Shown here: positions 11,871-48,849 of the stretch, piece by piece | How the letters are laid out: every line of letters begins with the position of its first letter | Numbering within the stretch: the first letter of the stretch is position 1 | Position numbers and translations under genes: made by a program | The notes under the pieces: model-generated | The model's database searches: none | What the model saw: the letters and a program-made list of their open reading frames with translations, nothing else | What the model was told of the DNA's origin: nothing | From: Candidatus Doudnabacteria bacterium | GTDB taxonomy: Bacteria; Patescibacteriota; Doudnabacteria; UBA920 | DNA: 64,000 nt | NCBI GenBank assembly: GCA_041389225.1 | Contig: JAWKSI010000001.1 | Span: 51,821-115,820, forward strand | Direction of reading: 5' to 3'

Positions 11871-11961
11871 GGAGAGTTGGCTGAGTGGTCGAAAGCGCCT
11901 CACTGCTAACGAGGTAGGGGTTTATAGCCTCTCAAGGGTTCGAATCCCTTACTCTCCGCCA
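11871..11961 (+). tRNA. tRNA-Ser(GCT)
   Basis: GGAGAGT acceptor stem, D-arm GCTGAGTGGTCGAAAGC, anticodon loop cTGCTAa, long variable arm, T-arm GGGTTCGAATCCC, 3' end ACTCTCCGCCA. Confidence 0.85.
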
Positions 11962-12010
11962 CTAAAATTTTTATCGTGCAGACCTACACACTATCGATTT
12001 TAGGTTAAAT

Positions 12011-12040
12011 AAAACCGCCGTAAGGCGGTTTTATTTATTC
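12011..12040. terminator. bidirectional terminator (aaaaccgcc gtaa ggcggtttt)
   Basis: Hairpin flanked by A-runs and T-runs, between the tRNA and the vapC 3' end. Confidence 0.55.
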
Positions 12041-12510
12041 TATTTTAATTTTATATCTTTAGGTTTCAGTAAATTTATCCCTGGAACTATTTCGAAGTCG
12101 TCTTTACCATCCCTTGAGAGTATACTTTTAACATTATTATTTTTCATAATCACACAATGAAAAGCATCTCCCCAGCCAGGATTGTATAAATTCATATTTT
12201 CACCAACATCTGACCAAAAATCATCAAAGGTATAATTGCTGTTTTTATGTGTATCTAGGATAAAAAACTTAACATTATAGATCTTTGATGATCTTTGAAG
12301 CCTATTAATATCTGAAGCAACTTTTTTGGGCTTTATATTAAATTGATTTATTAATACTTTTGCCAGCTCAACAAAAGTAAATAATGAGGTTACAAACCTA
12401 ACACTCTCCATCCCACTTAGCACCTCAACAGCATTTTCTATTTCAGAGCTAAATTCATCTTTCATATACCATGAAACAAATATATTTGTATCTAAATATA
12501 TATCTTTCAT
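12040..12510 (-). CDS. vapC: PIN-domain protein (VapC-like toxin)
   Basis: The N-terminus MKDIYLDTNIFVSWY is typical of PIN domains (D..N, acidic residues). 156 aa. Confidence 0.7.
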   Translation of the reverse strand: MKDIYLDTNIFVSWYMKDEFSSEIENAVEVLSGMESVRFVTSLFTFVELAKVLINQFNIKPKKVASDINRLQRSSKIYNVKFFILDTHKNSNYTFDDFWSDVGENMNLYNPGWGDAFHCVIMKNNNVKSILSRDGKDDFEIVPGINLLKPKDIKLK

Positions 12511-12511
12511 T

Positions 12512-12667
12512 TTATTTCTTAGCTTTGAATTTTACTGGAACTTCAACCTTTACAGCTTTTTTAGCTTTAAATGAAACACTCTCACCATTTTTAGTTTTAA
12601 AACTAACAGTTACCGGCTTTTGGACTGTCTTGGTAGCCTTAAATTCAACAATTTTTTTGCGTGTCAT
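12512..12667 (-). CDS. unannotated 51-aa lysine-rich ORF (MTRKKIVEFKATKTVQKPVTVSFKTKNGESVSFKAKKAVKVEVPVKFKAKK), a candidate antitoxin partner of VapC
   Basis: Minus-strand translation from the ATG at 12667. Its stop overlaps the vapC start. It falls below the 60-aa cut-off of the ORF track. Confidence 0.4.
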   Translation of the reverse strand: MTRKKIVEFKATKTVQKPVTVSFKTKNGESVSFKAKKAVKVEVPVKFKAKK

Positions 12668-12676
12668 AATTCGATT

Positions 12677-13949
12677 CTACACCAATTTAAGAATCTTGTC
12701 TTCATACTTAATTTTAGATTTTAAATTAGACAATAATAATCTTTTCTCACTAATAGAGCCTTCTTTCAGCAAATATTTTGCATAATTTTTTATGTCAGCG
12801 TCTTTATTATTAGAGACACTCTTAATACCCAAGACACTGGATTGAAATTTATTAAACCTGCTTACTTCGAGCTCTAGCCTTTTCTTAATCCCCAGTTCAT
12901 CAATATCCGTATAATCAATAATTTTAGCTAACTGATCAATCAGCTCTTTTTCTCTAATATACTTGTTTTTACAAAACCTATCTTTAGCTCTAGTGCAGGA
13001 ATAATAAATGTATTTGTTTGACCCACCGTTTTTTAGCTCTTTCCATTTTTCTTCTGCTGATATTCCTGAGCCACACTTACCGCATATAAACATTTTAGTA
13101 AATGCGAATTCTTTAGATTGTCTAGAAATATTATTTCTCTTAAGTTGTTCCTGAACTTTATCAAATAACTCCTTGGTTATAATTGGCTTGTGTCTTCCTT
13201 GATAAACATTGCCGCTATTTCTTGGATATTCAAATTCTCCGTAATAAAAGGTGCTTTGAAGTATTTTGTAAACCGCCGAAAGTGTTACAGGTCTATTACC
13301 TCTTGTATAGAAGTTAAGCTCGAATCTTAACCAGTGATATAACTTTCTACCTGACCATTTTTCGTGAGCCACTTTTTCGAACATTTGTTTTATAACTAAG
13401 GCTCTCTGAGGATCCTGAATAACCACACCCTTTCTATCTGTGCGCTTTTGGTTTAGATAGCCCAAAGGTGCCATATTTGGCCAAAAACCAAGCTCTACGC
13501 GCGTCCTCAACCCTCTTTTAACATTTATACCACGATTGTCATTTTCTAGCTTAGCTTGAGACCCCAATATCATCAGCAAAAACTTTTCATTTGGATTATT
13601 AGAAAACTCTTGGCCGTATGTTCTAATTTTTTGCAATTGCCCTCCATCCATTAAATCGACAATAGATCCCAAGTCTCCAGCATTACGAGATAACCTATCA
13701 GGCGCCCAGGTGAGTATGCCGTTAAATTCTACCCTCTTTAATTTCGCTTAAGAGCTCATTAAAGACTGGTCTTTGATTAGTTTCTTTAGCAGAATGTGAT
13801 TCTTGTTTAATTGTCACAATCTCAAGCCGATCACGCTCTGCTATTTGTAGCATCTCTTTTATCTGTGAATCTATAGACATTACCTGCTTCTCGTCGCCCT
13901 CGGAGCTACCCCTTGCGTATAGACAATATCTTATCTTTATTTCTTCCAT
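12677..13949 (-). CDS. large serine recombinase: resolvase catalytic domain plus recombinase and zinc-ribbon domains, interrupted by one frameshift at about 13722-13730
   Basis: The N-terminal 75-aa ORF (YARGSS..Q) reads on in another frame as ...GILTWAPDRLSRNAGDLGSIVDLMDGGQ.... Removing one T from the attt run at the junction restores ...EGRINGILTW.... The C-terminus has Cys-rich CGKCGSG..YYSC. Confidence 0.8.
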
Positions 13950-14020
13950 ACCACATTAATGACGCACCTGCCTTTTTTAGTCTAGGTAGATAATTTAAAA
14001 ATCAGCCATTTGGCTGATTT

Positions 14021-14722
14021 TTAAGAATACTTATATTCGAGTTTCTCTTTGACTTTTTTCCAATTTGGTAGCTTCTTGTCTAAACAAGCAAAAAATAACT
14101 TATTATGCTTTCTATATTTAATATGGCATAGCTCATGGATTAAAACATAATCTATACAATCTTTAGATGCGTGAATAAGTTTTGGATTTAATGATACTTT
14201 TTTACCCTTAAGGAAACTTCCCCACCTCTTCGACATATTTCTTAGTTCTAACACCAAATCATTATTTTTCGGAAATAGCTTTTTCATCTTCTCAAACCTA
14301 TCCTCAAATACAACAACTGTTTTTTCTTTATACCACCGATCAATTAATATTTTTGTATACGAACTGTTCTTAACTGATTTACTTGTTCTCACCTCAAAGA
14401 CCCCTCTAAAGAGGCATATCGAATCAGCTTTAGCACTTTTAACTACTAATTTATATTGCCTACCTAAATATAATAAACTTTCCCCAGAAACATACTCACG
14501 TTTATATTCTTTTTTATTCACTCGATCAAAAAAGTCGAGCTGTTTATTCATCCAAAACCATTTTCGTTTTAAAAACTGTTCAACTTTATACAGGTCAATA
14601 TCCAAGGGACCTTTGACCACTATTTCTTTGCTCGGTTTAATCGTTAAAGATAAACTTTTGCGTTTTTGTTTTATTAATTGATATTGGTATTGGTAATTTC
14701 CGTATACAAATTTTTTGATCAT
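14021..14722 (-). CDS. WLM/DUF45 (YgjP-like) zinc metallopeptidase, a known companion of type I R-M operons
   Basis: HEXXH motif in DYVLIHELCHIKYRKHN. Lies immediately downstream of hsdR. Confidence 0.7.
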   Translation of the reverse strand: MIKKFVYGNYQYQYQLIKQKRKSLSLTIKPSKEIVVKGPLDIDLYKVEQFLKRKWFWMNKQLDFFDRVNKKEYKREYVSGESLLYLGRQYKLVVKSAKADSICLFRGVFEVRTSKSVKNSSYTKILIDRWYKEKTVVVFEDRFEKMKKLFPKNNDLVLELRNMSKRWGSFLKGKKVSLNPKLIHASKDCIDYVLIHELCHIKYRKHNKLFFACLDKKLPNWKKVKEKLEYKYS

Positions 14723-17700
14723 TAGATTATCTTATGGTTATTCTCTGCCAACTGCACGGCTTTTTCAATCACTTCTTTACTAGCTTCTGGGCTTAAATCC
14801 AAATCATATTCAACCCTTGCCACATCATACAAATAGTCGTCAATTTTATTCATCATCTTTCTTTTTACATCTAAATTTTTATGCCAATCCACTATACTTT
14901 CTTGTTTGATTATACCTATGATATCTAATATTACCGAGGTATAATTTTCGCCGTCTAAAGGTATTAAGTTCTGTAAATTTCTATACAGAATGTCAGCACC
15001 TTTAACAGCAGTTACTTTTTCTGGCAAGCCTTCATCTCTTTTATTTACCACTTGGTCTTCAATCAACCTTAATTGTTTTAAGGCTTCGATGTCTGCCAGT
15101 TTCTTTAATCTCATTTGATCTAAAATCTCTTGGATTTTTTGAAAAGCGATCATAAAATTCTGGATCAGACTCAACATTTTCTCTAATTGTCTTATCTGTC
15201 TGGGCCGCGATCGCTTCTGCTTTAGATTTGTCGGAACCTAGATTTTCTACTTCTTCTTGAAATGCATCTCGGTCGGTAATGTTAACTTGCTTAGTCAAAA
15301 GTTCTACCCCTTTTGCATCAACGTATTTATCCAGCACATCAATTAAAGACTGTTTGTATTCTCCTAAATCTACAGAATCACCATAAACCAAACTTGAAGC
15401 TTTTCTTAATTCCATAAATTTCTTTAGCTCTCTTTTATATAAATCAATGTGTTTAAATTCTTTTACAAAGTTTTGTAAGACGAGACATTCATTAAACTCA
15501 CGAATAAACTTATTCATAGTTTTATAAAATACATCTCTTTGCTGTTCATCCTCTAAATGTCTAATAAAAACCTCGTCATCTTTAGAACCCTTAACTTCTT
15601 TAAAAATATCGTGAAGTTCACCATATGAATGTTCCAGCGATTCTATTTTGTCATCTACATCAATTAAAGCACTCTTAACATCATCTTCATCATAATTACC
15701 AAATAGTTTCATTGCGGTATCAATATTCTTAGCATTTTCCGAATAGTCGACTATAAAACCAGCAGTTTTTGGCAAGACTTCATTTTCAAATAATCTATTG
15801 ACCCGAGCAATAGCTTGCAGTAAATTATGATCTCTTAAGTCTTTGGATAAATACAAAACTGTATTTCGTGGAGCATCAAATCCAGTAAGAAGCTTATCTA
15901 CCACTATAATAATCTCCACCCCATCTTCATTATTTTTAAAACTACTAATCACACCGTCTTCATAAGATTTTACACTAGAGTGATTAGCCCTAACTTCGCC
16001 CAAATAATCCACTACAGTCTTTTTATGGGTATTAACTTTATCTCCATCCTCATGTTCATCAGAAATCACTACAGCTGTATTGATCTTCCCACTAATTGCA
16101 AAAGCTCGCTGGAACAACACCGCAGAAAACTTTGATGGTGCTACAACCTGTGCCTTTAATCCAGTACCTTTAAAATTATCCAAAAAGTGTTTTTCTATAT
16201 CAAAAGCTATCTCTGCAATTCTCTGGGGATTGTCTTTAATAATTTTACTTCCTACATATTGCTGAATCTCTTGCTTTTGTTTGTCCGACATTCCAGCGGT
16301 AATCCGCTCGATATGTTTGTCGATCATGTCTTTATTCTGCACTAAATCGACATATCGACCCTCATAAATTAAAGGTAAAATAACTTTATCATCTAAGGCA
16401 TCATCAATTGTATACCTATCAATGTAGCTACCAAATTTTCTCCAACTTTCAGCTTCTTTTTTCATTAATGGAGTGCCTGTAAAGGCAATATAACAAGCGT
16501 TAGGAATTATCCGATTCATTTCCAAATTGGCAATCCCGGTTTGACTGCGGTGTGCTTCATCAATTAATACAAAAATATTTGAATCATTATCAACCAAGCC
16601 AGTTCGCTTTTTACTGGCTGATTCAAACTTATGCACCAAAGTAGTAATTACGTCCAAACTCTTATCTTTTATTAATCCTAATAAATGCTCGCCACTAGTG
16701 GCCTGGGTTACACCCTTTTTAAGATTACAGTTTTTAAAAGTATCTTTAATTTGTTTGTCTAAATCTTTACGATCTGTAACTACAATCACTCTTGGGTTGG
16801 TAATATTCGGATCTTCTATTAACGCTTTCACAAACATGACCATTGTTAAAGATTTACCTGACCCTTGAGTATGCCAAATTAACCCACCTTTTCTCTTACC
16901 TTCGCCATTAGCACCTTCTTCGTATTCATTAATTCGATTAAATATTTTACGGATTGCAAAATACTGTTGGTACCTGGAGATCTTTTTTATCCCAGCGTCA
17001 AAAACTATATAGTTTTTAGTTAAATCTAAAAGCCTGTCTGGTTTAAATAAAAACACCACACCTTTATCTTGTTCTGTTACCAATCTACTTGTATGTTGTG
17101 TAGTTTGTTCAGGAGATCCATTTAAATCTTTAACCAACTGATTATATACTTTTGGTTCAATTTGCCTTTGCATTACAGACAAAACCTCAGATTCTACTTC
17201 TTCTACACTTAAGCCTTTTTCCTTCCATGCGCTATAAAACTTATTAGGTGTTCCCGTGGTACCATATCTTAAGTCCTTACCATTAGTGCCAACTAATAGT
17301 TGAGCATATGTAAATAACTTAGGGCAATAATCTGCTCCCTGGTTGCGATTTTGTTGCGAGAAAGCCTTGTCTACATCTACGCTAGATTTTTTGTTTTCTA
17401 TTACTGCGAAGGGTATTCCGTTTACAAAACAAACAATGTCTGGGCGAATCTTTTGCTTTCCTTGGGCTTCAAATTCTACAGATACATGGTAGTCATTATT
17501 ATCTGGATTTTTAAAATCTATAAATCTAAAATTCTTAGAAACCTTTTTACCATCGTGATGCACGACTATTGTTTTCCCACCAGCCGTCGGCATAATAGTG
17601 TTAAACACTTCTTGTGAACTATCTATTAAGCCTTTGTATTCTAAATTCTCTAATTCATCAATTGCATCCCTAACATCCTTTTCTCCAAACTTATAGTTTT

Positions 17701-17896
17701 TACCATCTACTTCGTAACTATTAAGCTCCATTAGTTTTTTAGATGCAATATCGTGCAGCAAAAAAGTGCTTGAGTCATTTCCACGCAGCTGCATTATTTC
17801 TTCTCGAGAAATATATTTATATCCAAGATTAATCAATAACTCTACAAAAGGTAATTGTGATTGCCTGGCTTCATCAAAATGTACTTGTTCTAACAT
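14722..17896 (-). CDS. hsdR: Type I restriction enzyme R subunit HsdR, roughly 1060 aa if one frameshift at the A6 run (about 15160-15166) is corrected
   Basis: N-terminal HsdR nuclease region, SF2 helicase motifs (HTQGSGKSLT, FVLIDEAHRSQ) and a C-terminal domain carried by the 151-aa ORF. Reading A6 as A5 gives the continuous ...DPEFYDRFSKIQEILDQMRLKK.... Confidence 0.9.
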
Positions 17897-17998
17897 AATT
17901 TAGTAATTTAATTCCTATAAATAAGTGGGTTTTTATATTTGACATAAACATGATTTATGCTATAATACCTACATCAATACGAAAAGGGATCCGAACGG

Positions 17999-18544
17999 TT
18001 AATTACCTAAGGAGCCCTTTTCTTTTTGCATGATTTTACTTTTAATACTAGGATTTTCTAGTTGATCAAAATATTCTGCGCCAATTTTTTTATATAAAGA
18101 GGAAGCGTATTTTTTATTTGGAAATAATACCTTTAAAAACCTATTTTCGGATATCAAAAAATCAACGAGCATTTTATAGTCGCCATCGCCAGACACTAAG
18201 ACAACTTTATCAAAGTCATCTTTTTTATACATCTTTTTCATAATAGAAAAAATAATATCACAATCCACATTTCCTTTTTTATTTCCCAGCATTGCAGAAT
18301 TATGTTCTCTAAAGACTAAAACAAAACCGGCTTCTTGTATATCTGTATATAAATCTTGATAGTCTTCGTTAAGCCACCCTAAAAAATAATATGCAGTTTT
18401 AACCTTATATTTATTTGCCAAGTATACCCGAAATTTCTCCAAGTCTACTTTCCAAGGACTTATTTCATGCTTAGTGGTGCCCATAAATAAATTTTGCCCA
18501 TCAATATAGGCTAAATTATTTGGTTGTGATTGATAGTCATTCAT
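17999..18544 (-). CDS. NYN (LabA-like, PIN-superfamily) nuclease-domain protein
   Basis: AYIDGQNLF...DCDIIFSIM...VVLVSGDGDYKMLVDFL matches the NYN pattern (IDG.NL...D......VLVSGD.DF). Lies between hsdS and hsdR. Confidence 0.7.
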   Translation of the reverse strand: MNDYQSQPNNLAYIDGQNLFMGTTKHEISPWKVDLEKFRVYLANKYKVKTAYYFLGWLNEDYQDLYTDIQEAGFVLVFREHNSAMLGNKKGNVDCDIIFSIMKKMYKKDDFDKVVLVSGDGDYKMLVDFLISENRFLKVLFPNKKYASSLYKKIGAEYFDQLENPSIKSKIMQKEKGSLGN

Positions 18545-18552
18545 ATAAGATA

Positions 18553-19731
18553 CTACTTTACTTTTTCTAATAAGTCTTCTGGGGTTCTAATCTTCCCAGT
18601 AACTAAATTGTTTAATAAATATTTTTTCTGTTCTTGCCAGAGGGTAAGTTTTTTCTGGAGAGCGGCGATCTCATCATCAGCAGAGGTGAGAATATCAGCG
18701 ATTGCTTTTTGTTCCCTTAGTTCTGGAACACTATATTTAATAGACAGAAGTTCTGACTTATTCAACTTTGCTCTTGTTCCTCCGTTCAAATACATCAAAA
18801 CATTTTTATGCACCGTTGAATAAAAAAGGAAATCTTGAGAATTTTTTTCATTCGCTTTAATAACATGCGCATGATTGTTAACCCATGATTTCCCATATAC
18901 ACGATAAGCGATTGGTCGATTTTGATATTCATCAAATTGACCTCCATCTTCTGCAACCAGAATAATATCTTCATCAAAAAGATAATCATTTACATAATCA
19001 ACGATATTATTTGCACCGCAGTATGGAATAATGCCTTGCATTCTCGATCTTTCGTCAGAGTTTAATGGAACTCTCTTTGCGTCTAAACAAATAGCAATAT
19101 CTTTAAGTTTTACCTCTTTCCACTCGTCACTAAACCCAGGTAAACGTTTTTTGCCTGTGAGGAGTTGTTGCATCAAACCCTTTTTGATATTTTTCTTTAA
19201 AGCAATTTTCTTTTTAAGTTTTTCAATAGCCTCATCCCATGTTTCGAGAACAGTAGCGATACGGTTTTGTTCAAGGAGAGGGGGAAATTTCATGGGGCAA
19301 GAAAGTATGTCATCTTTTCGTAAGTTTGTTTGATTTACCCCATCATCAAAAGAAAGGAAGTAGCGATTTCTGCTTAGAGCAAGATATAAGAACTTCCTTG
19401 ATACCCCCTTTGCCCTAAATCCTCCAATTCTTTGATTTAGAGTATAAGTATTGTCTTTATTGACATAAAAACACTTTGCTATAGCTTTCCCATTTGGGAC
19501 ATCACTCATTACCATTGCAATGTCTCCTTTTTTTAAAGGGACCAAAAACTTATTTGAGTATTTTTTTATTTTTCCATTAGATGAAATAAATTTTGAATTC
19601 ACAACTACATAATTTCCGTTTTCATCAATATCTTTTTCATGCCCTTTTCCATTGAAAAAGTCTACTACTTCTCTGAGTTGTTTTTTTACCCACCCATTAG
19701 GAATATTTTGTTGTTTATTTCTGGTCTTCAT
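18553..19731 (-). CDS. hsdS: Type I restriction-modification specificity subunit HsdS (two target-recognition domains)
   Basis: 392 aa. The central and C-terminal conserved coiled regions (LLEQNRIATVLE.., LREQKAIADILTSADDEI) are typical of HsdS. Confidence 0.8.
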   Translation of the reverse strand: MKTRNKQQNIPNGWVKKQLREVVDFFNGKGHEKDIDENGNYVVVNSKFISSNGKIKKYSNKFLVPLKKGDIAMVMSDVPNGKAIAKCFYVNKDNTYTLNQRIGGFRAKGVSRKFLYLALSRNRYFLSFDDGVNQTNLRKDDILSCPMKFPPLLEQNRIATVLETWDEAIEKLKKKIALKKNIKKGLMQQLLTGKKRLPGFSDEWKEVKLKDIAICLDAKRVPLNSDERSRMQGIIPYCGANNIVDYVNDYLFDEDIILVAEDGGQFDEYQNRPIAYRVYGKSWVNNHAHVIKANEKNSQDFLFYSTVHKNVLMYLNGGTRAKLNKSELLSIKYSVPELREQKAIADILTSADDEIAALQKKLTLWQEQKKYLLNNLVTGKIRTPEDLLEKVK

Positions 19732-20208
19732 TTAATTTCTTTTTGATTGAATTCCTTGTTCAACCACAGCTTCTATATTTCTCGCAATCCAGTTATATGC
19801 ATCAGACCCTGCGTCATACACAGAAATATATTCTGATAAATTTTTGCCATTCTTTAAGCCGATTTTTATAAACGGGTTAATGCCCTTGGAACATGTTCCT
19901 GTTCGTGGGTCCCTGAGATTATGAATGTATATTCCGACCAATCCTTTTTTACTATTCCATGCTTTTTCTATTTCATACTTTACCCACTTGCTTTTATGAG
20001 TCTCCGCTCCAATCAAAACAACAACACAAGAAGATTTTTCTATGTTTTCGTCAATCCACCGACGTATCGCCGCATCTCCACCTCTTTTAATTTCTTCCCA
20101 TCTATTTGGGGTGACGGGTTTATTAGCTTCAATAACACCTATGTTTCTAATTTGTTGTACTCTCATTACATCATTACGAAAATGAAAGCTGTAAAATATA
20201 TTCCTCAT
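19732..20208 (-). CDS. ThsB-like TIR-domain protein (DUF1863 / MTH538 TIR-like family), 158 aa
   Basis: NIFYSFHFRNDVMRVQQIRN...NRWEEIKRGGDAAIRRWIDENIEKSSCVVVLIGAETHKSKWVKYEIEKA...GLVGIYIHNLRD...SKGINPF aligns motif-by-motif with Thoeris ThsB-type proteins (VFFSFHY.D...RV..VRN, VLIG..T..R.WV.YEI.K, IGIHI...KD, KG.NPF). The gene is wedged between hsdM and hsdS, and its stop abuts the hsdS start. Confidence 0.75.
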   Translation of the reverse strand: MRNIFYSFHFRNDVMRVQQIRNIGVIEANKPVTPNRWEEIKRGGDAAIRRWIDENIEKSSCVVVLIGAETHKSKWVKYEIEKAWNSKKGLVGIYIHNLRDPRTGTCSKGINPFIKIGLKNGKNLSEYISVYDAGSDAYNWIARNIEAVVEQGIQSKRN

Positions 20209-20214
20209 AATTAA

Positions 20215-20612
20215 AATATACTAATTAATATTACTAATAAAATAGTGGGTATATAAAATAACTTTAAGGTATTGGACCACATGCAATACAAAATAGCAGT
20301 GTCACGCAATGAATTAAATTTAGAAACAGACATTGAATAATCTATAAGTGCTTCATCTTTGATATTTCTAACTTCATCATATAAATGCCTGTATTTGCGC
20401 TCTAAAGATAAAAATAAGCATCATGAATCCAAAATATCATGATTACCAAAATCAATATAATCTGCAATTCATTTCTACAAATTCTAAAAATGCTGCTGCT
20501 AACGCCACAACTAGTGTTATCATCCATCCTCTCAGGGTGAATAGATTATTTCCCATGCGAGAAATAACCTCTTGAATCATTTGCAAATGTGCAATCTTTT
20601 TGTTATCCGACA
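20215..20612 (-). pseudogene. small membrane protein gene (about 165 aa, two predicted TM segments) broken into three frames
   Basis: Minus-strand ATG at 20612 gives MSDNKKIAHLQMIQEVISRMGNNLFTLRGWMITLVVALAAAFLEFVEM. The reading continues in the other two frames as NELQIILILVIMIFWIHDAYFYL and ERKYRHLYDEVRNIKDEALIDYSMSVSKFNSLRDTAILYCMWSNTLKLFYIPTILLVILISIF. It lies directly upstream of the TIR gene. Confidence 0.4.
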
Positions 20613-20626
20613 TATTAATTTTTGAC

Positions 20627-22129
20627 TATTTAATACTCATAGCCTTTAAGTATTTTTTCATCTGTTCTTCAAGCTCTTTCAATTCTGGCTCAAGCTTCGA
20701 CAACTCCTGTAGTTTTGCTCCAATATCTACTGGTCTTCTTCAAGATATCGACATATCTTGTAATATTTAGATTAAAATCATTTTCTTTAATCTCTTTAAA
20801 CTTAACCACACGAGCAAACTTCTCGACATCTTTACGATCTTTGTAGCTTTTAAAGATTTTATCTATGTTTTCTTCGGTTAAAGTATTTTGAGCTTTCCCA
20901 GATTTATACTCTTTAGACGCCTCGATAAACATGACATCTTTTTTGCTCTCATTCTCTGCCCCTGCCTCACGAGATCTGTCTATCACCAAAATAGCTACAG
21001 GAATACCGGTAGTAGAGAATAGTCCTGCAGGCAGGCCAATAACAGCATCAATCAAGTTTTCTTCTAGTAACTGCTTTCTAATTTTCCCTTCAGCGCCACC
21101 TCTAAATAACACACCATGAGGCACTATAATAGCTCCACGACCTGTTTTAGGTTTTAAGGTTTCTACCATATGGCTGATAAAAGCATAGTCACCTTTGTCT
21201 TTAGGTGGCACTCCACGGTGAAAACGGTTAAATGGATCACCTTCGGCATTTTCGGCTCCCCATTTTTTTAGACTAAAAGGAGGATTAGCTACTGCAACAT
21301 CAAATTTAATTAATTTACCATTTTCTACTAGCAGTGGATTATTTAAAGTATCACCCCACTCAAGTCGGGCAGAGTCTTTGCCATGCAAGAACATGTTCAT
21401 ACGAGCTAGCTGGTAAGTAGAACCCGTGGATTCTTGTCCATATAAAGCGTAATCGTTTGACCCTTGAGATTCTACTTCTTCTCCTGCTAACAAAAGTAAA
21501 CCACCTGAGCCAACAGCGAAATCACAAATACGATCTCCAGGTTTTGGTTGAGCAAGTTTGGCCACCAATTTTGCAACATTCCTAACAGTAAAAAATTCTC
21601 CTGCCTTTTTTCCTGCGTCTGCACCAAATCGCTCGATCATATACATATAAGATTCGCCGAGAACATCCTCACCAACTTCAGACAAATCAATCTTATTAAA
21701 ATCCTGCATCAAGTGCCTGATCATTTTATTACGTTGATCAAGCTTGCCTAAGATTGACTCATTATTAAAGTCTACAGAAAAAATTCCTTCGAGCTTATCA
21801 CGATTCTCTTCTTCTATTTTATGAAGAGCTTTATTAATCTCTTCACCAATATTGTCAGATTCTATCTTTTCGTATAAAGCATCAAATGTAGCTTCTTCTG
21901 GAATATAAAAACGATCGAGTTTCATCTTTTCTTCGACACGCTTCTTATCACCCTGGTAACGCTCTACATACTCAGCCCTTTTTATTTTAGAAATGTCACT
22001 GACATATTTAAAGAAAAGCATTACTAATACATAATCTTTATACACTCCAGCATCAACAGATGTCCTAGAAGAATCCGCTGCCTGCCAAAGCACTTTATTT
22101 AATTCTGGTTGTGTTATTTTTTTAGACAT
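20627..22129 (-). CDS. hsdM: Type I R-M N6-adenine DNA methyltransferase HsdM. The annotated stop at 20690 is probably a 1-nt indel, and the reading continues to 20627 as ...ELEPELKELEEQMKKYLKAMSIK.
   Basis: N-terminal HsdM domain and NPPF motif (VAVANPPFSLKKW). A typical coiled C-terminus is recovered after a 1-nt correction near 20695. Confidence 0.9.
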
Positions 22130-22709
22130 TATTTTGTAGTTTAAGAAAAATGGTCTTTAGTATATCGCGTTTTAGCTGCTTTTGTTTGTCGTGGAGGTTT
22201 ATCTGCTTAATAACATTATTATACAAATCAACTATAGTTTTTTGTTGTTCTAGACTAGGTAATAAGATAGAAGTTTCACCTAAGACAGATTTAGATATGT
22301 GCATAATAGTACTTCCTCTGGCTTTTTGCATTATTTCTGATTGAAAAGCAGGTGAGTTTAAGTAAAAATTTAAGTACTCAGGATTAACCTTTTTGTCTTT
22401 GATTCTAATAATATACAAAGAGGAGTTTGCCATTGATTTTTGTTCGCTTTGAACCAGGGAAGATCTAAATTCTTTCCCGGGAGTACTGCGGGACAACATT
22501 AGAATATCATTCTGGTGTATCACTGCTGGAGACCTGGCTGGTAAACTTTCTAGCTTAGGTAAATTACTCAGCTCCGATATCTTGGTATTGCTTACAATGT
22601 CAGATGCTTGCACCACTGGATATTGGCCGTTTTCAGAGTAGTCCTTAATATAGATTGCTGCCCCAGATATAATATCGACAAGATCTTTTAACATAATATT
22701 TGAACTCAT
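22122..22709 (-). CDS. hsdS: half-size HsdS (single target-recognition domain), overlapping the hsdM start
   Basis: 195 aa. It has a TRD-like region and the conserved C-terminal helix (LEQQKTIVDLYNNVIKQINLHDKQKQLKRDIL). Confidence 0.6.
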   Translation of the reverse strand: MSSNIMLKDLVDIISGAAIYIKDYSENGQYPVVQASDIVSNTKISELSNLPKLESLPARSPAVIHQNDILMLSRSTPGKEFRSSLVQSEQKSMANSSLYIIRIKDKKVNPEYLNFYLNSPAFQSEIMQKARGSTIMHISKSVLGETSILLPSLEQQKTIVDLYNNVIKQINLHDKQKQLKRDILKTIFLKLQNNV

Positions 22710-22739
22710 ACAGACATTATACTAAGTTATAATTTTCTG

Positions 22740-23153
22740 TCAAATATTTTGATTATTTTTCTTAATCCCTGCAGCTTTAGCAATAATATCTGCCAAAGTA
22801 TGGGCTTCTTTTAGGTTTTCTGGGATTTCTTGTTCTTTTGAATAGACAATTCTAATGGTCTTATCACTACTATCTTTACTCGAGTAATGTTTATTATTAT
22901 GCTTTAATGCAAATTTTATTAAATCGCTCTTCCCTTCCTGTATCCCTTGTATCAGAGCATTTTCTGCAATATCCCCAATATTTTCTTTACCCTCTTTAAT
23001 TGCTTTATTAGTTTGAGCGGTAAACCGTTTACTAGATTTCCTTAATCTGTAATAGCTTGCCTTGCTGAATCCAGTCTTTTTACAGGAATACAAAACATTG
23101 CCAGTTTTTTCTAGCTCAGTTAAGAATCTTTGTTTTTGATCTTTAGAAATCAT
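22740..23153 (-). CDS. hypothetical protein with an N-terminal HTH (KKTGFSKASYYRLRK)
   Basis: ORF with an HTH-like motif. Its stop overlaps the start of the upstream methyltransferase. Confidence 0.4.
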   Translation of the reverse strand: MISKDQKQRFLTELEKTGNVLYSCKKTGFSKASYYRLRKSSKRFTAQTNKAIKEGKENIGDIAENALIQGIQEGKSDLIKFALKHNNKHYSSKDSSDKTIRIVYSKEQEIPENLKEAHTLADIIAKAAGIKKNNQNI

Positions 23154-23905
23154 TTTGTAAGAGATTGGTATCTATCGATAATTACTTGGCAGTAATTTAA
23201 GTCTATTTCAAAAGCAATACATTTCCTGCGTGTTTGCTCGCATGCAAGTAAAGTTGACCCAGAACCTGCAAACAAATCCAGTACTGTATCACCTATATTA
23301 CTACTATTTAAAATCATCTCTCTTAAAAGCGGTAGGGGCTTCATCGTTGGATGAAGTTTGCTTTTCTGCGGTTTTGGATAAAACAAAGCTGATTTACTTT
23401 TGGATTTATAAAATTTATGCCTGCCGTGCCAGCCGTAATAGATGAGTTAGTGCTGTGGTAAATAATCGAGTCGTCCTATCACTGGCTTATTTTTTACCCA
23501 GACAAGCATTTGCCCAAGTTTAATCTGTACTTTATCGCAAGCTTTCTTTAATGCAAAAATTAACTTATCTGAATTAAAAATATATATTGAATTATGTTCT
23601 GCAAAATATGGCGCAATGTTTTGCAGCCACCCAACAGAAAACTCCTTATAACTCTCTTCTGACTGCACTTCATCTCCAATTATTTCTGTATCATTACTTA
23701 ATTCTGCAAACTTGTATTTACTTTTTGTATAATCTACGCCGTAAGGCGGATCGGTGAGTAATAAATTAATTTTCTTTCCTGTTAATGCCTGATCCACCAA
23801 GTCTTTATCACGGCTATCACCGCAAACAAGAATATGACTACCAAGTTCGACTATACTGCCGTACTTAATTAAGTTTTTTGGCTTTTTGTCCTGTAAGTTC
23901 TTCAT
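23150..23905 (-). pseudogene. ParB-associated N6/N4 DNA methyltransferase (second copy) interrupted by an in-frame TAA at 23447-23449
   Basis: LLLTDPPYGV motif in the N-terminal part. HPTMKPLPLL and FAGSGST motifs in the C-terminal part. The two ORFs are in the same frame: ...DYLPQH*LIYYGWHGRHKFY.... Confidence 0.7.
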
Positions 23906-25129
23906 ATCTATTGATAATTAATTGTGTAAAGATAGGTGATTGCTCAATTACAAAAGCCTTTCGCTTTAATTGCTCGCAAGCAAGAAGCTCACTACCACTG
24001 CCTCCGAAACCGATAAAAATATTGTCTCCGGGTTTACTACGCCTCAGTAGTGGTCGTTCAAATAAAGACACGGGCTTCTGGGTTGGGTGCTCATAACTGC
24101 CCTGCGATTCTTTCGTCAACCAAATATCAATCATATCTTCAATGTTAGAAATGGTAGCATTACCAGTTCCAACATTGGATTTAATATCTCGTGGAAGTTT
24201 TTATGTTTATCAGATAAATATGGCTTCCCAAGAGTTCCATAAATTACTGGCTCATAGCACTTATTAAATCCAGATTTTGGAGTACAGTTGATCCCATTTT
24301 TGATCCAGACGCAAGTCCGCTTATAACTAATGCCTAGATTTTTATATATTGTTTGAACCAATCCTACGTTCCGCTGATCATTCCATATAAATATGTGAAC
24401 GTCGGGTTTTGTAATTTTAAGGCTAGTAGATATAGCTTTAGTTAAGAACTTCTCGTACTCATCACTCGACAAGTTATCGTTAAAATGTCCTCCATACTGA
24501 GATTTCCCAGATATTCCTTTATCATAATCCATGCAGATTCCATATGGCGGGTCACTAAGAATCATATCCATCTTTTCTCCGTTAGTTACTTTTAAAACAT
24601 CTGTTTCTTCAGTGCTGTCGCCGCAAAGTAGATAGTGATTTCCAAGTTTGAATAAATCCCCAGTTTTTATCTTTGTGTGTTTTGCCTGCTCTTCTTGCTG
24701 GGGCTTAATATCTAAATCTTCAAGAGAAATTTGGTTATCCCAAATATCACTTAACTCATTTTGACCAAACCCTATATCGAGCAACAAGTCTAAATCAAAT
24801 TCCTTCAAAAGCTCGTTGTTCCATGACCCAGTATTCTGGTTACTTCTAAGCAAATATTCTTCAAGCTCTGTTTTGTTCAGAAGACGACTTGGTACACGAA
24901 CTTCTATTTCTTCATCTGTTCTGCCAAGTAGCTTTAATATTTTGAGCCTTTGATGACCACTAATTACTGTGCCATCAAGATTAATAGCAATAAGCTCTAC
25001 ATAGTTAAACCGTTTAAAACTTTCAGTTAAGTGCTCTTTTTGAGTTTCGGACAAAGTCCTTGGATTTTTGTCGTAAGGAATTAAATCCTTAACTAGTCTT
25101 TTTTGCGTAGACCAAACTAAATTTTTCAT
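23865..25129 (-). CDS. ParB-like nuclease domain fused to an N6/N4 DNA methyltransferase, split by a frameshift at an A5 run (about 24196-24200)
   Basis: N-terminal ParB-like region (LIPYDKNPRTLSE), MTase motifs ILSDPPYGI, EHPTQKPV and FIGFGGSGS. Reading A5 as A6 gives the continuous ...DKHKKLPRDIKSNVGTGNATISNIEDMIDIWL.... Confidence 0.75.
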
Positions 25130-26109
25130 AGTATTGCTTTTTAATTGTCTAGTATAATTTCAGCAGACATATTAGCGTTACCTCAAAAGGAGTTTAGAAA
25201 ATAAAAAACTGCTTTTTTAAAAGCAGCTTTGTTTGTTATCCACTCCGAATAATTACAGCTCCGGAGTTTTATTTAAATTTAAAGTTATACGAACTATTTA
25301 TTCTATAACCAAGACCGGGTTGAGATTCAACTAAATTAATAGTAGTATCTAATTCTCTACGCACCTTTTTATTAATATTGCTATACCTTTTCTAAAGGCC
25401 TTCGCTTGAAGCATACGATCCAGGTGCTACTATTAATTGTTCTGAAGTTCTATATTTTATATCTTCAGATAAAGCTTTCAAAGCCATTACGCCCTTATTA
25501 GTTAAATTTATTTGCTTATCATTACCTAAATGTAGTGTCCTTGACCGTATATCTAAGAAAATAGATTTTTGATTTATTACACGCCACTATTCTGTTGCTC
25601 AAAAGTTCGATAATTCTTTGATTTTGTTTTGTATTTATAATCTATGCTTCTTGTCTACTAGATTCGTTTAAGCGTGTAGTAATATTTTTTAAAGGTTTAA
25701 CAATATGACTAAAATCGGTAATTCGTCTTAAACTCTGAGAAAGCTCATTAATTGAATTTAAAAACGGCAAGTTAAAATCAGATTTTCTCACCTCGCTCTA
25801 TTCGTTTACTTATAGATTTTTATTTTCAAGCTTTACTTTCATACTATAATTATACCGTAAAATTAAACTTAAAATCATGGAAATTAGCCAAAAAACCATA
25901 GATAGACTTCATAAATATTTCTTAAAAACCTATGGGGTGGATATGACAGAAGAAGAAACGAGAGAATCAGCTGAAAGTCTAATAGGGGCTTTTTCTCTAC
26001 TAATAGAGATGGATCAAAAGGAAAACCAAAAGCAACAAATGAATAGTAATCAAAATAACAAATAACTGTTATAATGATATAAAATTACTTAATTTTATTA
26101 AAAAATCCT

Positions 26110-26729
26110 ATGAAAAATGAAATAGAAGCAACTTTTCTATCGGTAGACAAAGATGATATGAGAGAAAAGTTTAAAGTAACGGCTATACCCTAAAAACTCC
26201 AGAGTATATGATGCGACGAAAGACTTTTGATTTCTCCAAAGTCTCCCCTGGTAAAAATAAATGGGGTCGAGTTAGAACAGAATCGGATAAAACTACAATG
26301 ACAATTAAAGAAATTACTGGTGACGGTGTAAATGATACCTATGAAGTAGAATTAGTGGTTAACGATTTTGATACTGCCACAGAATTCTTTGAAGCATGTA
26401 ACATTCACCCTAAATCTTTTCAAGAAAATATGAGAGAAGTCTGGGTTAAAGATAATATCGAAGCTACCATAGATATGGCCAGGTCTAAATCCTTTTGTTG
26501 AATTTAGAGACCATAGATGAATCAGCTCAAAACAGCAAGTAAAGAACTTGAGTTTAATTATGATGAGGCTCTATTTGGTAGTATTGATTTAGTATATGAA
26601 AAAGAACTGGAATTCCAGCTGCGGAAATTATCAAACTCCCAGAAATTACATTCGACAAAGTCCCTCAAAAATAAAAAAACGAGCCGTGGAAATAAATTCC
26701 GCGGCTCTTTAGTTTGTAATTTGAATTAA
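26110..26729 (+). pseudogene. CYTH-like (class IV adenylate cyclase / triphosphate tunnel family) gene fragmented into about 3 pieces
   Basis: The N-terminus MKNEIEATFLSVDKDDMREKFKV carries the CYTH EIE..F signature. It continues in the 26208..26501 ORF after a stop/frameshift, and possibly in 26517..26729. Confidence 0.4.
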
Positions 26730-26757
26730 AGTGTCCTTAATTGGTGGGTATTTATAC

Positions 26758-27705
26758 TCACCAGGCTCTTCCATGCACCATCCCTCCACATTTGTCCAGA
26801 GCCCTGCAATTGAAATTGCAGAATGGTGTCACCGTTAACCGAAGAGAGGTCTTAGATAAAAGCCTTTTGACCTCAATTTCTCCGATTTGACCCTGCAAAG
26901 CAGTCTTTAAACTGTCAGGTTTGCCGAAATGAGTTGGAAGGAAGAAACCAATATCCCTTCTTAAATAACAGAAGTATAAATTTAAGTATGGGTCAACCCT
27001 AGCGTAATCACCAAAACCCTCCTCACAAACTTCTGTATACTGACAAGTCGAGCAAGGATGGTTTGAGCGATCCAGTTTGTCACCAAGCTTTACCTCGACT
27101 AAGCCCCCGCCCAGTAAATGGAACCTTAACCTTTTTCTTCCCAATTGCTTTCTTACCCTTTCAATCTCTATCGTTCTTGGCAAGACCATATTTTTAACAA
27201 CTGGTCGCCAATCTTGATAATGAGGTTTTATGGGTTTGGTCACTTTCAGGGGTCCATAACAAAGTGAACAGTTTAAGGCGACACTTATACTCTTCCAAAA
27301 GATAACTGTTCTGGAATGTCAGAAGTATAACCTTTTAGCAAAACTCGGTTAAAATCAATTTTAATACCCAGATTCAGGGCTTTTTTTACCCCAGATATAA
27401 ATTGATCGTAGTCTCCATGACCACCAGAAATCTCTTTGAAGACTATTGGATTAGTCGAATGCCAACTAGTCCGTATAAAGGACAAGCCTGCGACGGAAAG
27501 CTGTTTTCAAATCCGCCTAACAATTGTCCGTTAGTAGTCATTGAAACTTTAAACCCTTTATCAACCAAACAGTGAACAACATCATTGATTCGATACTTGC
27601 CATCCCTCCACAATAGCGGTTCAAGAGCACCGATTTCCAAGTTTCGATTCCCCCTATACTAATCCACTCATCAGCGATACTCAAGATGTTACCAAATGAC
27701 AGTGG
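26758..27705 (-). pseudogene. radical-SAM-like enzyme remnants (at least 3 frame-broken pieces). The canonical CxxxCxxC region is missing.
   Basis: Motif EPLLWRDGKYRINDVVHCLVDKGFKVSMTTNGQLL. Cys-rich C-terminal fragment (CSTCQYTEVCEEGFG..., FCNFNCRALDKCGG). Confidence 0.45.
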
Positions 27706-27707
27706 TT

Positions 27708-28270
27708 TCATGATCCCCCTCCTACTTTTGAAATATAACCCAGAATCTTCTCTAGCGTTTGTTCTTTTGAATCACTACTGGTATCCAAAGTGATCAAGTC
27801 CATGTCCAAAAACTTTTGAACCTCGTCAAGAAAACCACTGTTGTTTTCAAGCTTCACATCACTTTTCTTTTCCAATCTATTTCTAATCCGAGCATCCCGC
27901 ACACCGGAATCACAGGTTAACAAAAATGAATAGTCGGGTTTTATAATGTTCGACTCATCGTGAATTAATTTTATCCTGCGATCCAGTACTAAATGGTATG
28001 CCATTGTAGAAGATATGTACCTATCAGAAACAACAGAATTTCTTTTCAGAAATTTCTGAATCTGAGAACTATCATGGTCAATAGCTAACCTGTAAAAGCA
28101 ATACCTCTGAATAGGAGTGGCTGTGTTTTCAACTTCTTGCGAAACTGAGCAAAACTATCAGAAGGTGATTTGTAGCATATATAACCACATCTCTCAGCCA
28201 ACAATTCAGTTATTGTAGTTTTACCTACACCATCGACTCCGTCTATAGAAATAAACAAGTTCTTTTTCCA
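27708..28270 (-). pseudogene. thymidylate (dNMP) kinase-like gene split in two (P-loop N-terminus and lid/C-terminus)
   Basis: ISIDGVDGVGKTT P-loop in 28085..28345. The C-terminal fragment 27708..28004 reads ...DYSFLLTCDSGVRDARIRNR.... Confidence 0.5.
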
Positions 28271-28283
28271 CAATACACCTCCG

Positions 28284-28772
28284 CTACTGAACAGAAACAA
28301 CGTAGTATTCCTTGCTATTGTTTCTGATATTAATCTCCACCTCATCTCTCTTTTTGCCGATTAAAGCATTTGAAATTGGGGAACCGAGAGAAACTACTCT
28401 TATGACTTTATCCTCAAACTTAAATTCTTGACCACCGCCAGTTGGAAGCAAGAAGTATCTAACTATTTGATTAGTCCCATACTCTTCTAACTCGACAATA
28501 GCGTAAATTGATCCATGTTGGATAGATTTCGGGTGGTCAACTTTTAAAGTCTTTAACCTTGCTAGCTTCTCCCTCAAATCTACTAAAGTTCTTTCTTGAC
28601 CGCCTGCTAAATATTGAGCCTCTTCTTTAAAAGTATCGTAACGAGAGACCATTGCTCCTTTATGGAACTTTGATTCATCTTCTGCTGCTTTTTTAGAAGT
28701 TTCTGATATTTTAATATCAGCCTCAACAATAGCGATAATTTTGTCTACTATTTCTTTCTTTAATTCTTCCAT
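28284..28772 (-). CDS. GreA/GreB-family (Rnk-like) transcription elongation factor homologue
   Basis: N-terminal coiled coil. The C-terminal FKBP-like domain reads YFLLPTGGGQEF...IRVVSLGSPISNALIGKKRDEVEI. Confidence 0.55.
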   Translation of the reverse strand: MEELKKEIVDKIIAIVEADIKISETSKKAAEDESKFHKGAMVSRYDTFKEEAQYLAGGQERTLVDLREKLARLKTLKVDHPKSIQHGSIYAIVELEEYGTNQIVRYFLLPTGGGQEFKFEDKVIRVVSLGSPISNALIGKKRDEVEINIRNNSKEYYVVSVQ

Positions 28773-29035
28773 ATAACCTCCAAGTATTTTTTAAAATTCA
28801 ACTAAATTATTATAATTTAGCTAATAACTATAGTATAAAAATCAGTTTTAGTCAAACGAAAAACCATGTGTAGCTGTGTCTCATTTGTCTCATTTTGTTG
28901 ATTAAAATCGCGACCCGAACTCCTCAAATTTGATATACTTAAAATATCTATAAAAGCCTTACTGGGCTTGCTCTCTGCCGGTACTTAACCAGAGTGGCCC
29001 GCCACGGATCTGTTTGCCACTTGTGGTAAATAGAA

Positions 29036-29147
29036 CCATGGTAATGATAAGGTCTTCTCTATCCTGACCATTTTTATCCGCCGACTCTAAGAGGCGGAAT
29101 ATATAGCGGAAATGTCGGAGCTTTAGCTTCGGCCTTACTCTCCACCA
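29036..29147 (+). mobile_element. right-end (attR-like) arm of the tRNA-Ser(GCT) island, ending in a degenerate copy of the tRNA 3' end (ccttactctccacca)
   Basis: cttactctcc is identical to the 3' end of the tRNA-Ser(GCT) at 11947-11956. The preceding roughly 100 nt is about 70% identical to 31701..31796. Confidence 0.55.
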
Positions 29148-29160
29148 CCTCGTGCTAGCA

Positions 29161-31358: not shown

Positions 31359-31446
<88 letters not shown>

Positions 31447-31843
31447 CAAACTTGACTGCCATTTATGGTAGTTAAGTTTGTGGTAGAAATGAAGGGTGAG
31501 AAATAGAGTGGTTCTACTTTTGCATAGTATTTGCAAAAGTAGAAACCAAAAGGTCTGGGAGACCTTTTGGTAACGGCGGGTCGCCGCAGCGTATCTCGAC
31601 GAGCTACAATGAGCGTAAGCGAATGTAGCGAGGAGAGTAGCGGAAGGTGACCGAATCCCTCCACTTCCGCCATGGATTTGGTCATCGCAGATGATCAAAT
31701 CCATGGTAATGGTGGAGCATTCTCTATCCTGACTCATCTTTGTCCGTTGACGTTAGGAGGCGGAATACATATGGAAATGCCGGAACGAAGTTACGGCCTC
31801 CACTTCCGCCACAAACTTGACTGCCATTTATGGTAGTTAAGTT
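31447..31843 (+). mobile_element. tandem integration scars. Two further copies of the tRNA-Ser(TGA) 3' end (31652-31672 and 31797-31811, both ...cctccacttccgcca) are present. A 32-nt downstream flank (caaacttgactgccatttatggtagttaagtt) is duplicated at 31447 and 31812. The region also contains an arm element (31701-31796) homologous to 29036-29132.
   Basis: Direct repeats read from the sequence. Perfect 11-bp hairpins at 31514-31542 and 31546-31570. A 17-bp hairpin at 31670-31706. Confidence 0.6.
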
Positions 31844-31950: not shown

Positions 31951-33103
31951 ATGAAAACTGAACAACGGCACTGGACCCAAAACCGTGGTTGGCAAAACCT
32001 CGGCTCCAGTCAACTAACCAAAGACCAAGCTCCTCAATTAGTATTGGTCTTTGGTGGTCGCAAAGTTTTGGAAGACCCAGCTCATTATCAAGAAATCAAA
32101 GACTTCTACCCAGAAGCTAATATTCTTATGTGCTCAACCGCTGGCGAAATCATAGATACAATGGTCTATGATGACTCACTCGCGCTCACAGCAATTCACT
32201 TTGAAAAAACTACTTTGCAAATTGCCAAAGCGGTAATCACCGATCAATCTGAAAGCGAAAGCAAGGGTCAAGAATTAGCCAACCAACTACCTAAAGATGG
32301 TTTGGTGCATGCGCTAATCTTCACTGACGGACTCAAAGTAAATGGAACCGCTTTAGTCAAAGGTTTAACTGATAATTTGCCAAAAGAAATTACAGTCACC
32401 GGTGGGATGGTTGGCGATGGAGCAAACTTCGAAAAAACTCTCATTGGTTTTAACCAAGAACCAGCAGAAGGTCAACTTATACTAATTGGTCTGTACGGGA
32501 GTGAACTTAGAGTTGGTCATGGGTCAATGGGAGGCTGGGATCCTTTTGGGCCAGAACGAACAATTACCAAATCTGAACACAATGTTTTGTACGAACTAGA
32601 CGGACAACCAGCTCTCGAACTTTACAAAAAGTATCTCGGCGACGAAGCCGCGGGACTTCCTAGCACTGGCCTACTCTTCCCTCTTAGTCTTAAAATCAAT
32701 ACCGATCAAGGTGAAGTAGAAGTTGTGAGAACCTTACTTTCAGTCGACGAAACCAACCAAAGCATGACCTTTGCCGGAGATATGCCAGAAGGAACTTCGG
32801 CAAAACTTATGAAAGCAACTTTGAACGTCTCATGATGGCGCTCAAGGCGCAGCCAAAATGAGTCTCGATAGCTCTAAATTAGAAGGTACAGAACTCGCTC
32901 TTTTGATTAGTTGTGTCGGCCGCAAGCTTGTCCTCAAAGAAAAAATCGAAGAAGAAGTCGAAGCAGTTCAATCTGCACTCGGTGGCCAAGCGGCGATCAC
33001 TGGTTTTTATTCATACGGTGAAATCTCACCAGTAACTGCTCTCAACCAACAGTGCCAACTCCACAACCAAACCATGACCGTTACTATTTTCAAAGAAGTA
33101 TAG
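31951..33103 (+). CDS. FIST-domain sensor protein (FIST_N plus FIST_C), split by an apparent 1-nt indel near 32830
   Basis: Two adjacent ORFs in different frames. The C-terminal part has ALLISCVGRKLVL...GFYSYGEISP (FIST_C). The second frame is open upstream (..SHDGAQGAAKMSLD..). Confidence 0.65.
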
Positions 33104-46885: not shown

Positions 46886-46916
46886 ATTAATTATAACATT
46901 TAAAAATTAAACTTAT

Positions 46917-48062: not shown

Positions 48063-48063
48063 T

Positions 48064-48810: not shown

Positions 48811-48849
48811 TTTATTTTTTGTTTGTCTATCATTTAATCACTCAAGTTT

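Follow-up and report, generated by a model that had tools for sequence, protein, structure and literature searches.

A low-GC island at tRNA-Ser(gct)

The 64,000-nucleotide (nt) stretch of DNA analysed here, called the window throughout, comprises positions 51,821 to 115,820 of contig JAWKSI010000001.1 in assembly GCA_041389225.1, a metagenome-assembled genome (MAG) of Candidatus Doudnabacteria, a bacterium of the Candidate Phyla Radiation (CPR). We read positions 11962-29148 of the window as an integrated mobile island of 17.2 kb and low GC content at a tRNA-Ser(gct) gene. The island encodes a large serine recombinase, a type I restriction-modification (R-M) operon and two solitary DNA methyltransferases (MTases), and several of its genes are interrupted. 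We infer, with moderate confidence, that the interruptions exist in the DNA of the cells and reflect genuine decay of an integrated island. The limits of the island are given by two features.

11871..11961, plus strand: tRNA-Ser(gct), identified by ARAGORN and Rfam; its 3' end (11947-11962) forms the left boundary repeat
29133..29148, plus strand: second, imperfect (15/16) copy of the tRNA-Ser(gct) 3' end in direct orientation, attR-like and read as the island's right boundary

The boundary repeat is 16 nt long, and the copies at 11947-11962 and 29133-29148 match at 15 of 16 positions. GC content is approximately 0.33-0.34 over 12-26 kb, compared with approximately 0.39 in the rest of the window. 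The island makes up 27% of the window. The serine recombinase gene lies 0.7 kb from tRNA-Ser(gct), at the tRNA-proximal end. The locus therefore shows all three features of an island at a tRNA gene: a repeat of the tRNA 3' end, a distinct composition and a recombinase at one end. The genes on the minus strand are, in order, a PIN-domain gene, the large serine recombinase, ygjP, hsdR, an NYN-domain gene, hsdS, a ThsB-like TIR gene and a small membrane-protein gene, beyond which lie hsdM, a half-size hsdS, an unassigned open reading frame (ORF) and two N6/N4 DNA methyltransferases. The right part of the island holds a MoaA-like radical-SAM gene, a thymidylate-kinase-like (tmk-like) gene and a GreA-like gene.

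Lesions were placed with homologues of 50-83% identity and frameshift-aware protein-to-DNA alignment. In the window this gave 13 insertions or deletions (indels), one nonsense codon and one permuted gene, with 11 of the 13 indels inside the island (binomial P=2.6e-5). Only two indels lie at runs of at least 5 nt, the A6 of hsdR at 15135-15140 and the T5 of the small gene at 20409-20413, and the remaining 11 are at runs of 3 nt or less. Nine minimal edits were sufficient to produce six full-length ORFs without secondary stops (the recombinase, hsdR, a 134-aa gene, hsdM, MTase-1 and a gene encoding a FIST domain), and the lengths of all six agree with those of their homologues. The genes for HsdS, NYN, TIR, YgjP, PIN and the half-size HsdS are open as deposited. 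The genes that carry lesions are the following.

12677..13949, minus strand: large serine recombinase, split between frames (Pfam; seven homologues of 72-75% identity; frameshift-aware alignment; repair gives 423 aa)
14722..17896, minus strand: hsdR, frame-broken (Pfam, homologues, frameshift-aware alignment and repair)
20209..20613, minus strand: small membrane-protein gene, in three frames (tblastn with a 137-aa protein of relative L001, DNA comparison and alignment; repair gives 134 aa)
20626..22129, minus strand: hsdM, frame-broken (Pfam, homologues; repair gives 501 aa, compared with 503 in relatives)
23150..23905, minus strand: MTase-2, second N6/N4 DNA methyltransferase, in a single frame (Pfam; alignment to DpnA, 5hfj)
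23865..25129, minus strand: MTase-1, ParB-like N6/N4 methyltransferase, frame-broken (Pfam, homologues, alignment and repair)
26758..27711, minus strand: MoaA-like radical-SAM remnant, permuted (NCBIfam; a partial homologue, L005)
27708..28345, minus strand: tmk-like gene, split between frames (Pfam PF02223)
31951..33103, plus strand: FIST-domain gene, outside the island (Pfam, homologues; repair gives 384 aa)

Lesions in individual genes

A first-pass annotation had reported that the recombinase, hsdR, hsdM, MTase-1 and the FIST gene were interrupted and that single-base changes at short homopolymers restored each of them. Each named gene is indeed split between frames, and an ORF reopens when a single base is changed at or close to the quoted place. 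Alignment to homologues placed the lesions differently in several cases, and three of the five quoted fixes proved to be mislocated.

In the serine recombinase, the lesion is an excess of 1 nt at 13724-13728 ('agAAttt'). It leaves the resolvase catalytic domain (PF00239), with its catalytic Ser retained, in a 75-aa ORF and the recombinase and zinc ribbon domains (PF07508 and PF13408) in a 331-aa ORF, so that the three domains are not found in one protein. The excess base had been located correctly, near 13727, and attributed to a T; removal of a T gives R-I-N, whereas an invariant Phe in the homologues favours R-F-N, obtained by dropping an A.

The frame of hsdR breaks in the A6 at 15135-15140, after residue 920 of about 1058, or 87% into the ORF. 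As deposited, the gene (15059-17896) encodes a 945-aa product, MEZ4179963.1, without the C-terminal domain, the last 137 residues being encoded in a different frame. The earlier identification of an A-tract as the break was correct, the tract being a true A6, and its position was out by about 25 nt (15160-15166). At this point the homologues read RFSKK(V/I), encoded by A6-A7, so that the ancestral tract was either A8, with loss of 2 nt, or A5, with gain of 1 nt. The divergence of the hsdR tail from its homologues is no greater than that among the homologues' own tails.

Three genes each contain a pair of 1-nt deletions. In hsdM these lie about 11 nt apart, at approximately 20742-20745 and 20732-20734, and cut off the last 38 or so residues; two deletions are required because only the third frame gives the conserved acidic 'EED'. 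The single fix proposed at 20695 marks merely a wrong-frame stop codon, away from both deletions. In the FIST gene the deletions are 17 nt apart, at approximately 32816-32818 and 32833-32834, and again a third frame, here containing 'NFERL', calls for two events and not for one near 32830. The small membrane-protein gene, which sits between hsdM and the TIR gene and is conserved in that place in relative L001, has its deletions 68 nt apart, at approximately 20477-20479 ('tttG^tag') and in the T-run 20409-20413. Comparison with the relative suggests that this T5 was probably a T6 originally.

Both solitary methyltransferases are truncated by lesions of different kinds. MTase-1 lacks one base at 24175-24178 ('aatCCAAtg'), about 25 nt downstream of the A5 (24198-24202) that had been proposed as its lesion site. 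Eight homologues retain 'HEILN' in the upstream frame, which places the missing base beyond the A5, and reading that run as A6 is not the repair. MTase-2 has an in-frame TAA at 23447-23449. The stop lies opposite a conserved Glu in the alignment to DpnA (5hfj), and on this basis is assigned to a GAA to TAA substitution. This lesion was absent from the first-pass annotation and is not a frameshift.

The body of the radical-SAM gene extends over at least three frames, with about three 1-nt deletions near 27640, 27495 and 27300, and the piece carrying its N-terminal Cys motif (approximately 26847-26761) lies downstream of the C-terminal part. When the pieces were exchanged, the permuted construct scored 74.7 bits with MoaA profile positions 10-164 contiguous, compared with 56 bits as written (NCBIfam). 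On the family profile, the N-terminal piece ends at the point where the body starts, and the piece itself reads CNFNCRALDKC, which is non-canonical relative to CxxxCxxC. These features suggest that the permutation may derive from a trimmed tandem duplication or another rearrangement. Comparison of the radical-SAM fragments with the PDB gave no match. The tmk-like gene breaks near 28100-28130, with PF02223 positions 1-39 in one frame and 61-181 in another, and its P-loop part overlaps the 3' end of the GreA-like gene (28284-28772). The breaks in the small gene, the tmk-like gene and the radical-SAM gene had not been noticed previously.

In the deposited annotation, the truncated products appear as ordinary proteins: HsdR (945 aa), HsdM (479 aa), an MTase (332 aa), the recombinase (331 aa, from a TTG start) and FIST (294 aa). 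The corresponding NCBI entries include MEZ4179963.1, MEZ4179967.1 and MEZ4179981.1.

The R-M genes were compared with those of relatives whose HsdR is intact. The remaining genes of the locus are intact, as listed below.

12040..12510, minus strand: PIN-domain gene (Pfam PF01850)
14021..14722, minus strand: YgjP-like metallopeptidase gene (Pfam; full-length tblastn match; also behind hsdR in relatives L001 and L003)
17999..18544, minus strand: NYN-domain gene between hsdS and hsdR (Pfam PF01936)
18553..19731, minus strand: hsdS with two target-recognition domains (two stretches of Pfam PF01420, 392 aa; tblastn to the relatives' HsdS)
19732..20208, minus strand: ThsB-like TIR gene embedded in the operon (Pfam PF08937; L001 also has a TIR gene in this slot)
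22122..22709, minus strand: half-size hsdS with one recognition domain, upstream of hsdM (Pfam; conserved in relatives)

The island operon has the order half-hsdS, hsdM, small gene, TIR, hsdS, NYN, hsdR and ygjP. In relatives with an intact HsdR (74-76% identity; 1055-1065 aa) the order is half-hsdS, hsdM (503 aa), variable inserts, hsdS, hsdR and ygjP. The inserts between the R-M subunits vary, with the 137-aa gene and a TIR gene in L001 (2527-11559) and four unrelated ORFs in L003 (4324-13884). This arrangement resembles defence cargo embedded in hsd loci. The features of a type I system are present in part: HsdM has PF02384 (1.4e-96) and PF12161 and is 83% identical to the relatives' HsdM, and HsdS has two recognition domains. 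HsdR is not encoded as a single polypeptide, though PF04313, PF18766, PF22679 and PF11867 are all there, and HsdM does not occupy a full-length frame.

A second tRNA-Ser gene, tga, is found at 31359-31446, 2 kb to the right of the island. Its 3' end together with 32 nt downstream (31432-31478) recurs at 31797-31843 with 94% identity, and another partial copy of this 3'-end repeat lies at 31652-31672. In addition, about 70 nt at 29036-29105 resemble 31701-31771 (78-82%). These repeats, just upstream of the broken FIST gene, look like att-site debris from earlier integrations, which would make the neighbourhood a site of repeated integration. A cluster resembling those for conjugation or type IV secretion occupies 43897-53001 on the minus strand, in a part of the window free of frame breaks, and encodes among others a VirB4-like ATPase (CD1110 family) and a PrgI-family protein; a 1383-aa ORF in it matches no family.

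Database searches were made for further copies of the locus. Megablast against plasmids found no copy of it, and exact-protein contig look-ups with six window proteins and the matching database entry returned no locus. The one exact match to the truncated HsdR, MEZ4179963.1 at 100% identity, is the entry of this MAG itself and so lends the frameshift no independent support. Scans of species-representative genomes gave no HsdR relative and one weak radical-SAM match only. Ten 90% identity clusters, drawn from about 15 billion proteins and including RecG and RadA, were all singletons or absent, and public protein data held no relative at 90% identity or above. Matches by tblastn in phages and plasmids were about 30% identical, too distant for lesion placement.

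Other candidates were examined and set aside. Three further possible split genes outside the island, a dCache ORF with a histidine kinase, VirB4 with its upstream ORF, and the 36880/37313 pair, were each resolved by Pfam as separate genes. Inspection by eye found no motif shared among the lesion sites, as methylation-linked miscalls would leave. A preference of the deletions for third codon positions, as would result from consensus drop-outs at strain SNPs, was assessed by hand; three sites fitted, one did not and three were ambiguous, which is not significant.

Origin of the lesions

If the island is genuinely decaying, its genes would have gathered inactivating mutations, most of them 1-nt deletions, together with one 1-nt insertion, one nonsense substitution and one rearrangement. 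Decay is favoured because the indels are confined to a low-GC island bounded by tRNA repeats (11 of 13), because the flanking ORFs and the unbroken segments of the island hold their nucleotide runs in frame, and because so few of the indels (2 of 13) occur at runs of 5 nt or more. It is also favoured because miscalled indels cannot make the TAA of MTase-2 or the permuted radical-SAM gene, because intact relatives with the same operon order show the parts that are missing here, and because the vicinity of tRNA-Ser(tga) holds duplicated 3'-end remnants.

A number of observations weigh against decay. Tight pairs of 1-nt deletions are rare among independent natural mutations and usual where a consensus is locally poor. 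Deletions outnumber insertions by about 11 to 1-2, and a single nonsense codon stands against 13 indels. Six genes became perfect after nine edits and the tail of hsdR is not excessively diverged; since no secondary damage is seen after repair, the lesions, if real, would have to be very recent. The FIST gene is a gene of the core region, outside the island. Finally, A/T runs of at least 8 nt occur at 0.9 per 10 kb in the window, compared with 3.0 and 3.8 in two short-read contigs of relatives. There are six such runs in the 64 kb, none of them in the island, and runs of 5-7 nt are about as frequent as in the relatives. The scarcity of long runs could hint at run compression, with the reservation that the counts are small and the organisms differ.

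The strongest alternative, which we regard as somewhat less probable than decay and still a serious contender, is an assembly or consensus artefact specific to the region. The contig would then derive from long-read or hybrid data, with a poor consensus over an island that is strain-variable or of low coverage and over a few further patches. Bases would have been dropped regardless of homopolymer length, and the cells would have intact copies of the R-M genes, MTase-1, the recombinase and FIST, whereas the stop in MTase-2 and the permutation of the radical-SAM gene would remain genuine. Within a population, strains typically differ most at their defence islands. The fine-scale distribution of the lesions agrees with such patches, with four deletions in 20409-20745, about four in 27300-28130 and two in 32816-32834 (clustering P ~0.011 under a generous null). 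The strong deletion bias, the location of most lesions at runs of 1-3 nt, the recovery of six flawless ORFs of expected length by nine edits, the lack of excess divergence past the hsdR break and the mild depletion of A/T runs of 8 nt or more all point in the same direction. Against this, a special cause is needed for flanks of 45 kb that are free of errors next to 11 errors in 17 kb. The TAA substitution and the permuted gene are left unexplained, so that real decay in the island is needed anyway. Most deposited MAGs are assumed here to be short-read assemblies, in which small indel artefacts are rare, and the weights given to decay and to an artefact partly depend on this assumption.

The paired deletions and the deletion bias could in principle have a biological origin, in an error-prone, patch-wise repair or mutation process of this CPR bacterium, with an integrated defence island as its preferred target. 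We consider this very unlikely. If true, it would be a biological route to the rapid silencing of mobile elements, beyond both independent decay and an assembly fault.

The first-pass annotation had explained the interruptions as homopolymer errors of a 454, IonTorrent or Nanopore consensus, on the grounds that they coincide with short homopolymers, and had concluded that they were likely sequencing indels and not pseudogenes. The lesions are mostly single-base indels, as it had stated, and the artefact discussed above keeps part of that conclusion alive. The homopolymer argument does not hold. A frame break can be fixed anywhere within a permissive interval, which extends between the stop codons of the two frames, and for random intervals of equal length the probability of including a run of at least 3 nt is 0.93-1.0 at four of the five sites and 0.71 for the 11-nt interval of FIST. 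In the 179-nt interval of hsdR, a run of at least 5 nt is expected with a probability of 0.83. The coincidence with short runs is thus no more than chance would give.

Two lesions would fit miscalled homopolymers across the whole platform: the hsdR break at an A6 where relatives have A6-A7, and the second break of the small gene in a T5 that was probably once a T6. Runs of at least 5 nt cover 5.4% of island bases. The other 11 indels lie where no run exceeds 3 nt, and the A5 proposed for MTase-1 is not its lesion. Intact ORFs outside the island, 39.9 kb in all, contain 201, 78, 24 and 3 runs of 5, 6, 7 and at least 8 nt, respectively, without a frame break. Unbroken segments of the island contain 84, 39 and 7 runs of 5, 6 and 7 nt, again all in frame (130 runs). 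In total, 436 runs of at least 5 nt are in frame, 306 of them in the outside ORFs and 130 in the island, and 34 have at least 7 nt; the data therefore resolve homopolymers well. The errors are not spread over the window (P=2.6e-5), their occurrence does not depend on run length, and they are accompanied by a nonsense codon and a rearranged gene. Platform-wide homopolymer miscalls are therefore very unlikely, and any artefact among the lesions would be a consensus fault specific to the region and not a homopolymer miscall.

The first-pass annotation had raised an alternative for the A-tract of hsdR, in which restriction would be phase-variable through slipped-strand mispairing; we consider this also very unlikely. 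The break does fall exactly in a homopolymer that is A6-A7 in relatives, where slippage is mechanically plausible. With 6 nt, however, the tract is short, and its place at residue 920 of 1058 is outside the promoter and the 5' part of hsdR. In relatives it represents just unexpanded, conserved Lys-Lys codons. Since hsdM of the same operon carries two further breaks, toggling of hsdR alone would not switch the system. Contingency loci described so far usually have homopolymers of at least 8-9 nt, in the 5' coding part or promoter, which does not describe the A6 of hsdR.

Relation to known systems and consequences

The island is most readily compared with decaying islands and prophage remnants at tRNA sites. 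With these it shares the repeat of the tRNA 3' end, the lower GC content, the tRNA-proximal recombinase and a cargo of defence and DNA-modification genes with frameshifts, a nonsense codon and a rearranged gene. It differs from them in its recombinase, which is a large serine recombinase, whereas islands that target tRNA genes more often use a tyrosine integrase. It differs also in the lesions, which are unusually rich in paired 1-nt deletions, and in the host, a CPR bacterium known from one MAG.

In the prr locus of E. coli, prrC sits among hsd genes. The operon described here is similar in that its hsd genes are interleaved with unrelated genes (the ThsB-like TIR, NYN and small membrane-protein genes), in slots whose content varies among relatives. 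It differs in that TIR and NYN genes are embedded in place of an anticodon nuclease, and in its extra half-size hsdS and trailing ygjP.

Phase-variable R-M systems with simple-sequence repeats are found in Haemophilus, Neisseria and Helicobacter. The hsdR frame break resembles these in lying inside a homopolymer of an R-M gene, and differs in that the tract is an A6 near the 3' end encoding a conserved Lys-Lys and that another subunit gene of the same operon is broken as well. Indel errors in long-read consensus sequences likewise consist predominantly of 1-nt deletions, occur in local clusters and yield perfect ORFs on repair. The present lesions differ from such errors in showing no dependence on run length, in having 45 kb of clean sequence next to them and in the presence of the stop substitution and the permutation in the island.

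If the lesions are real, separation of the catalytic domain of the recombinase from its DNA-binding domains would leave the island immobilised, as judged from the domain content. The C-terminal domain of type I HsdR docks HsdR onto the methylase core; without it, and with HsdM lacking its tail, restriction and perhaps also modification would be lost. Both solitary methyltransferases would be truncated. MTase-2 and the radical-SAM gene are dead whether the indels are real or not. To treat the R-M system as potentially functional, as had been suggested, calls for three separate corrections in hsdR and hsdM and not for one, and the homopolymer argument gives no ground for making them.

The finding is an ordinary one and concerns annotation and assembly quality. 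As a general lesson, lesions are better placed by homologue-guided, frameshift-aware alignment than at the nearest convenient run. The main value of the finding lies in annotation, where it is relevant to any use of this MAG for conclusions on the defence capacity of Doudnabacteria or the mobility of their islands.

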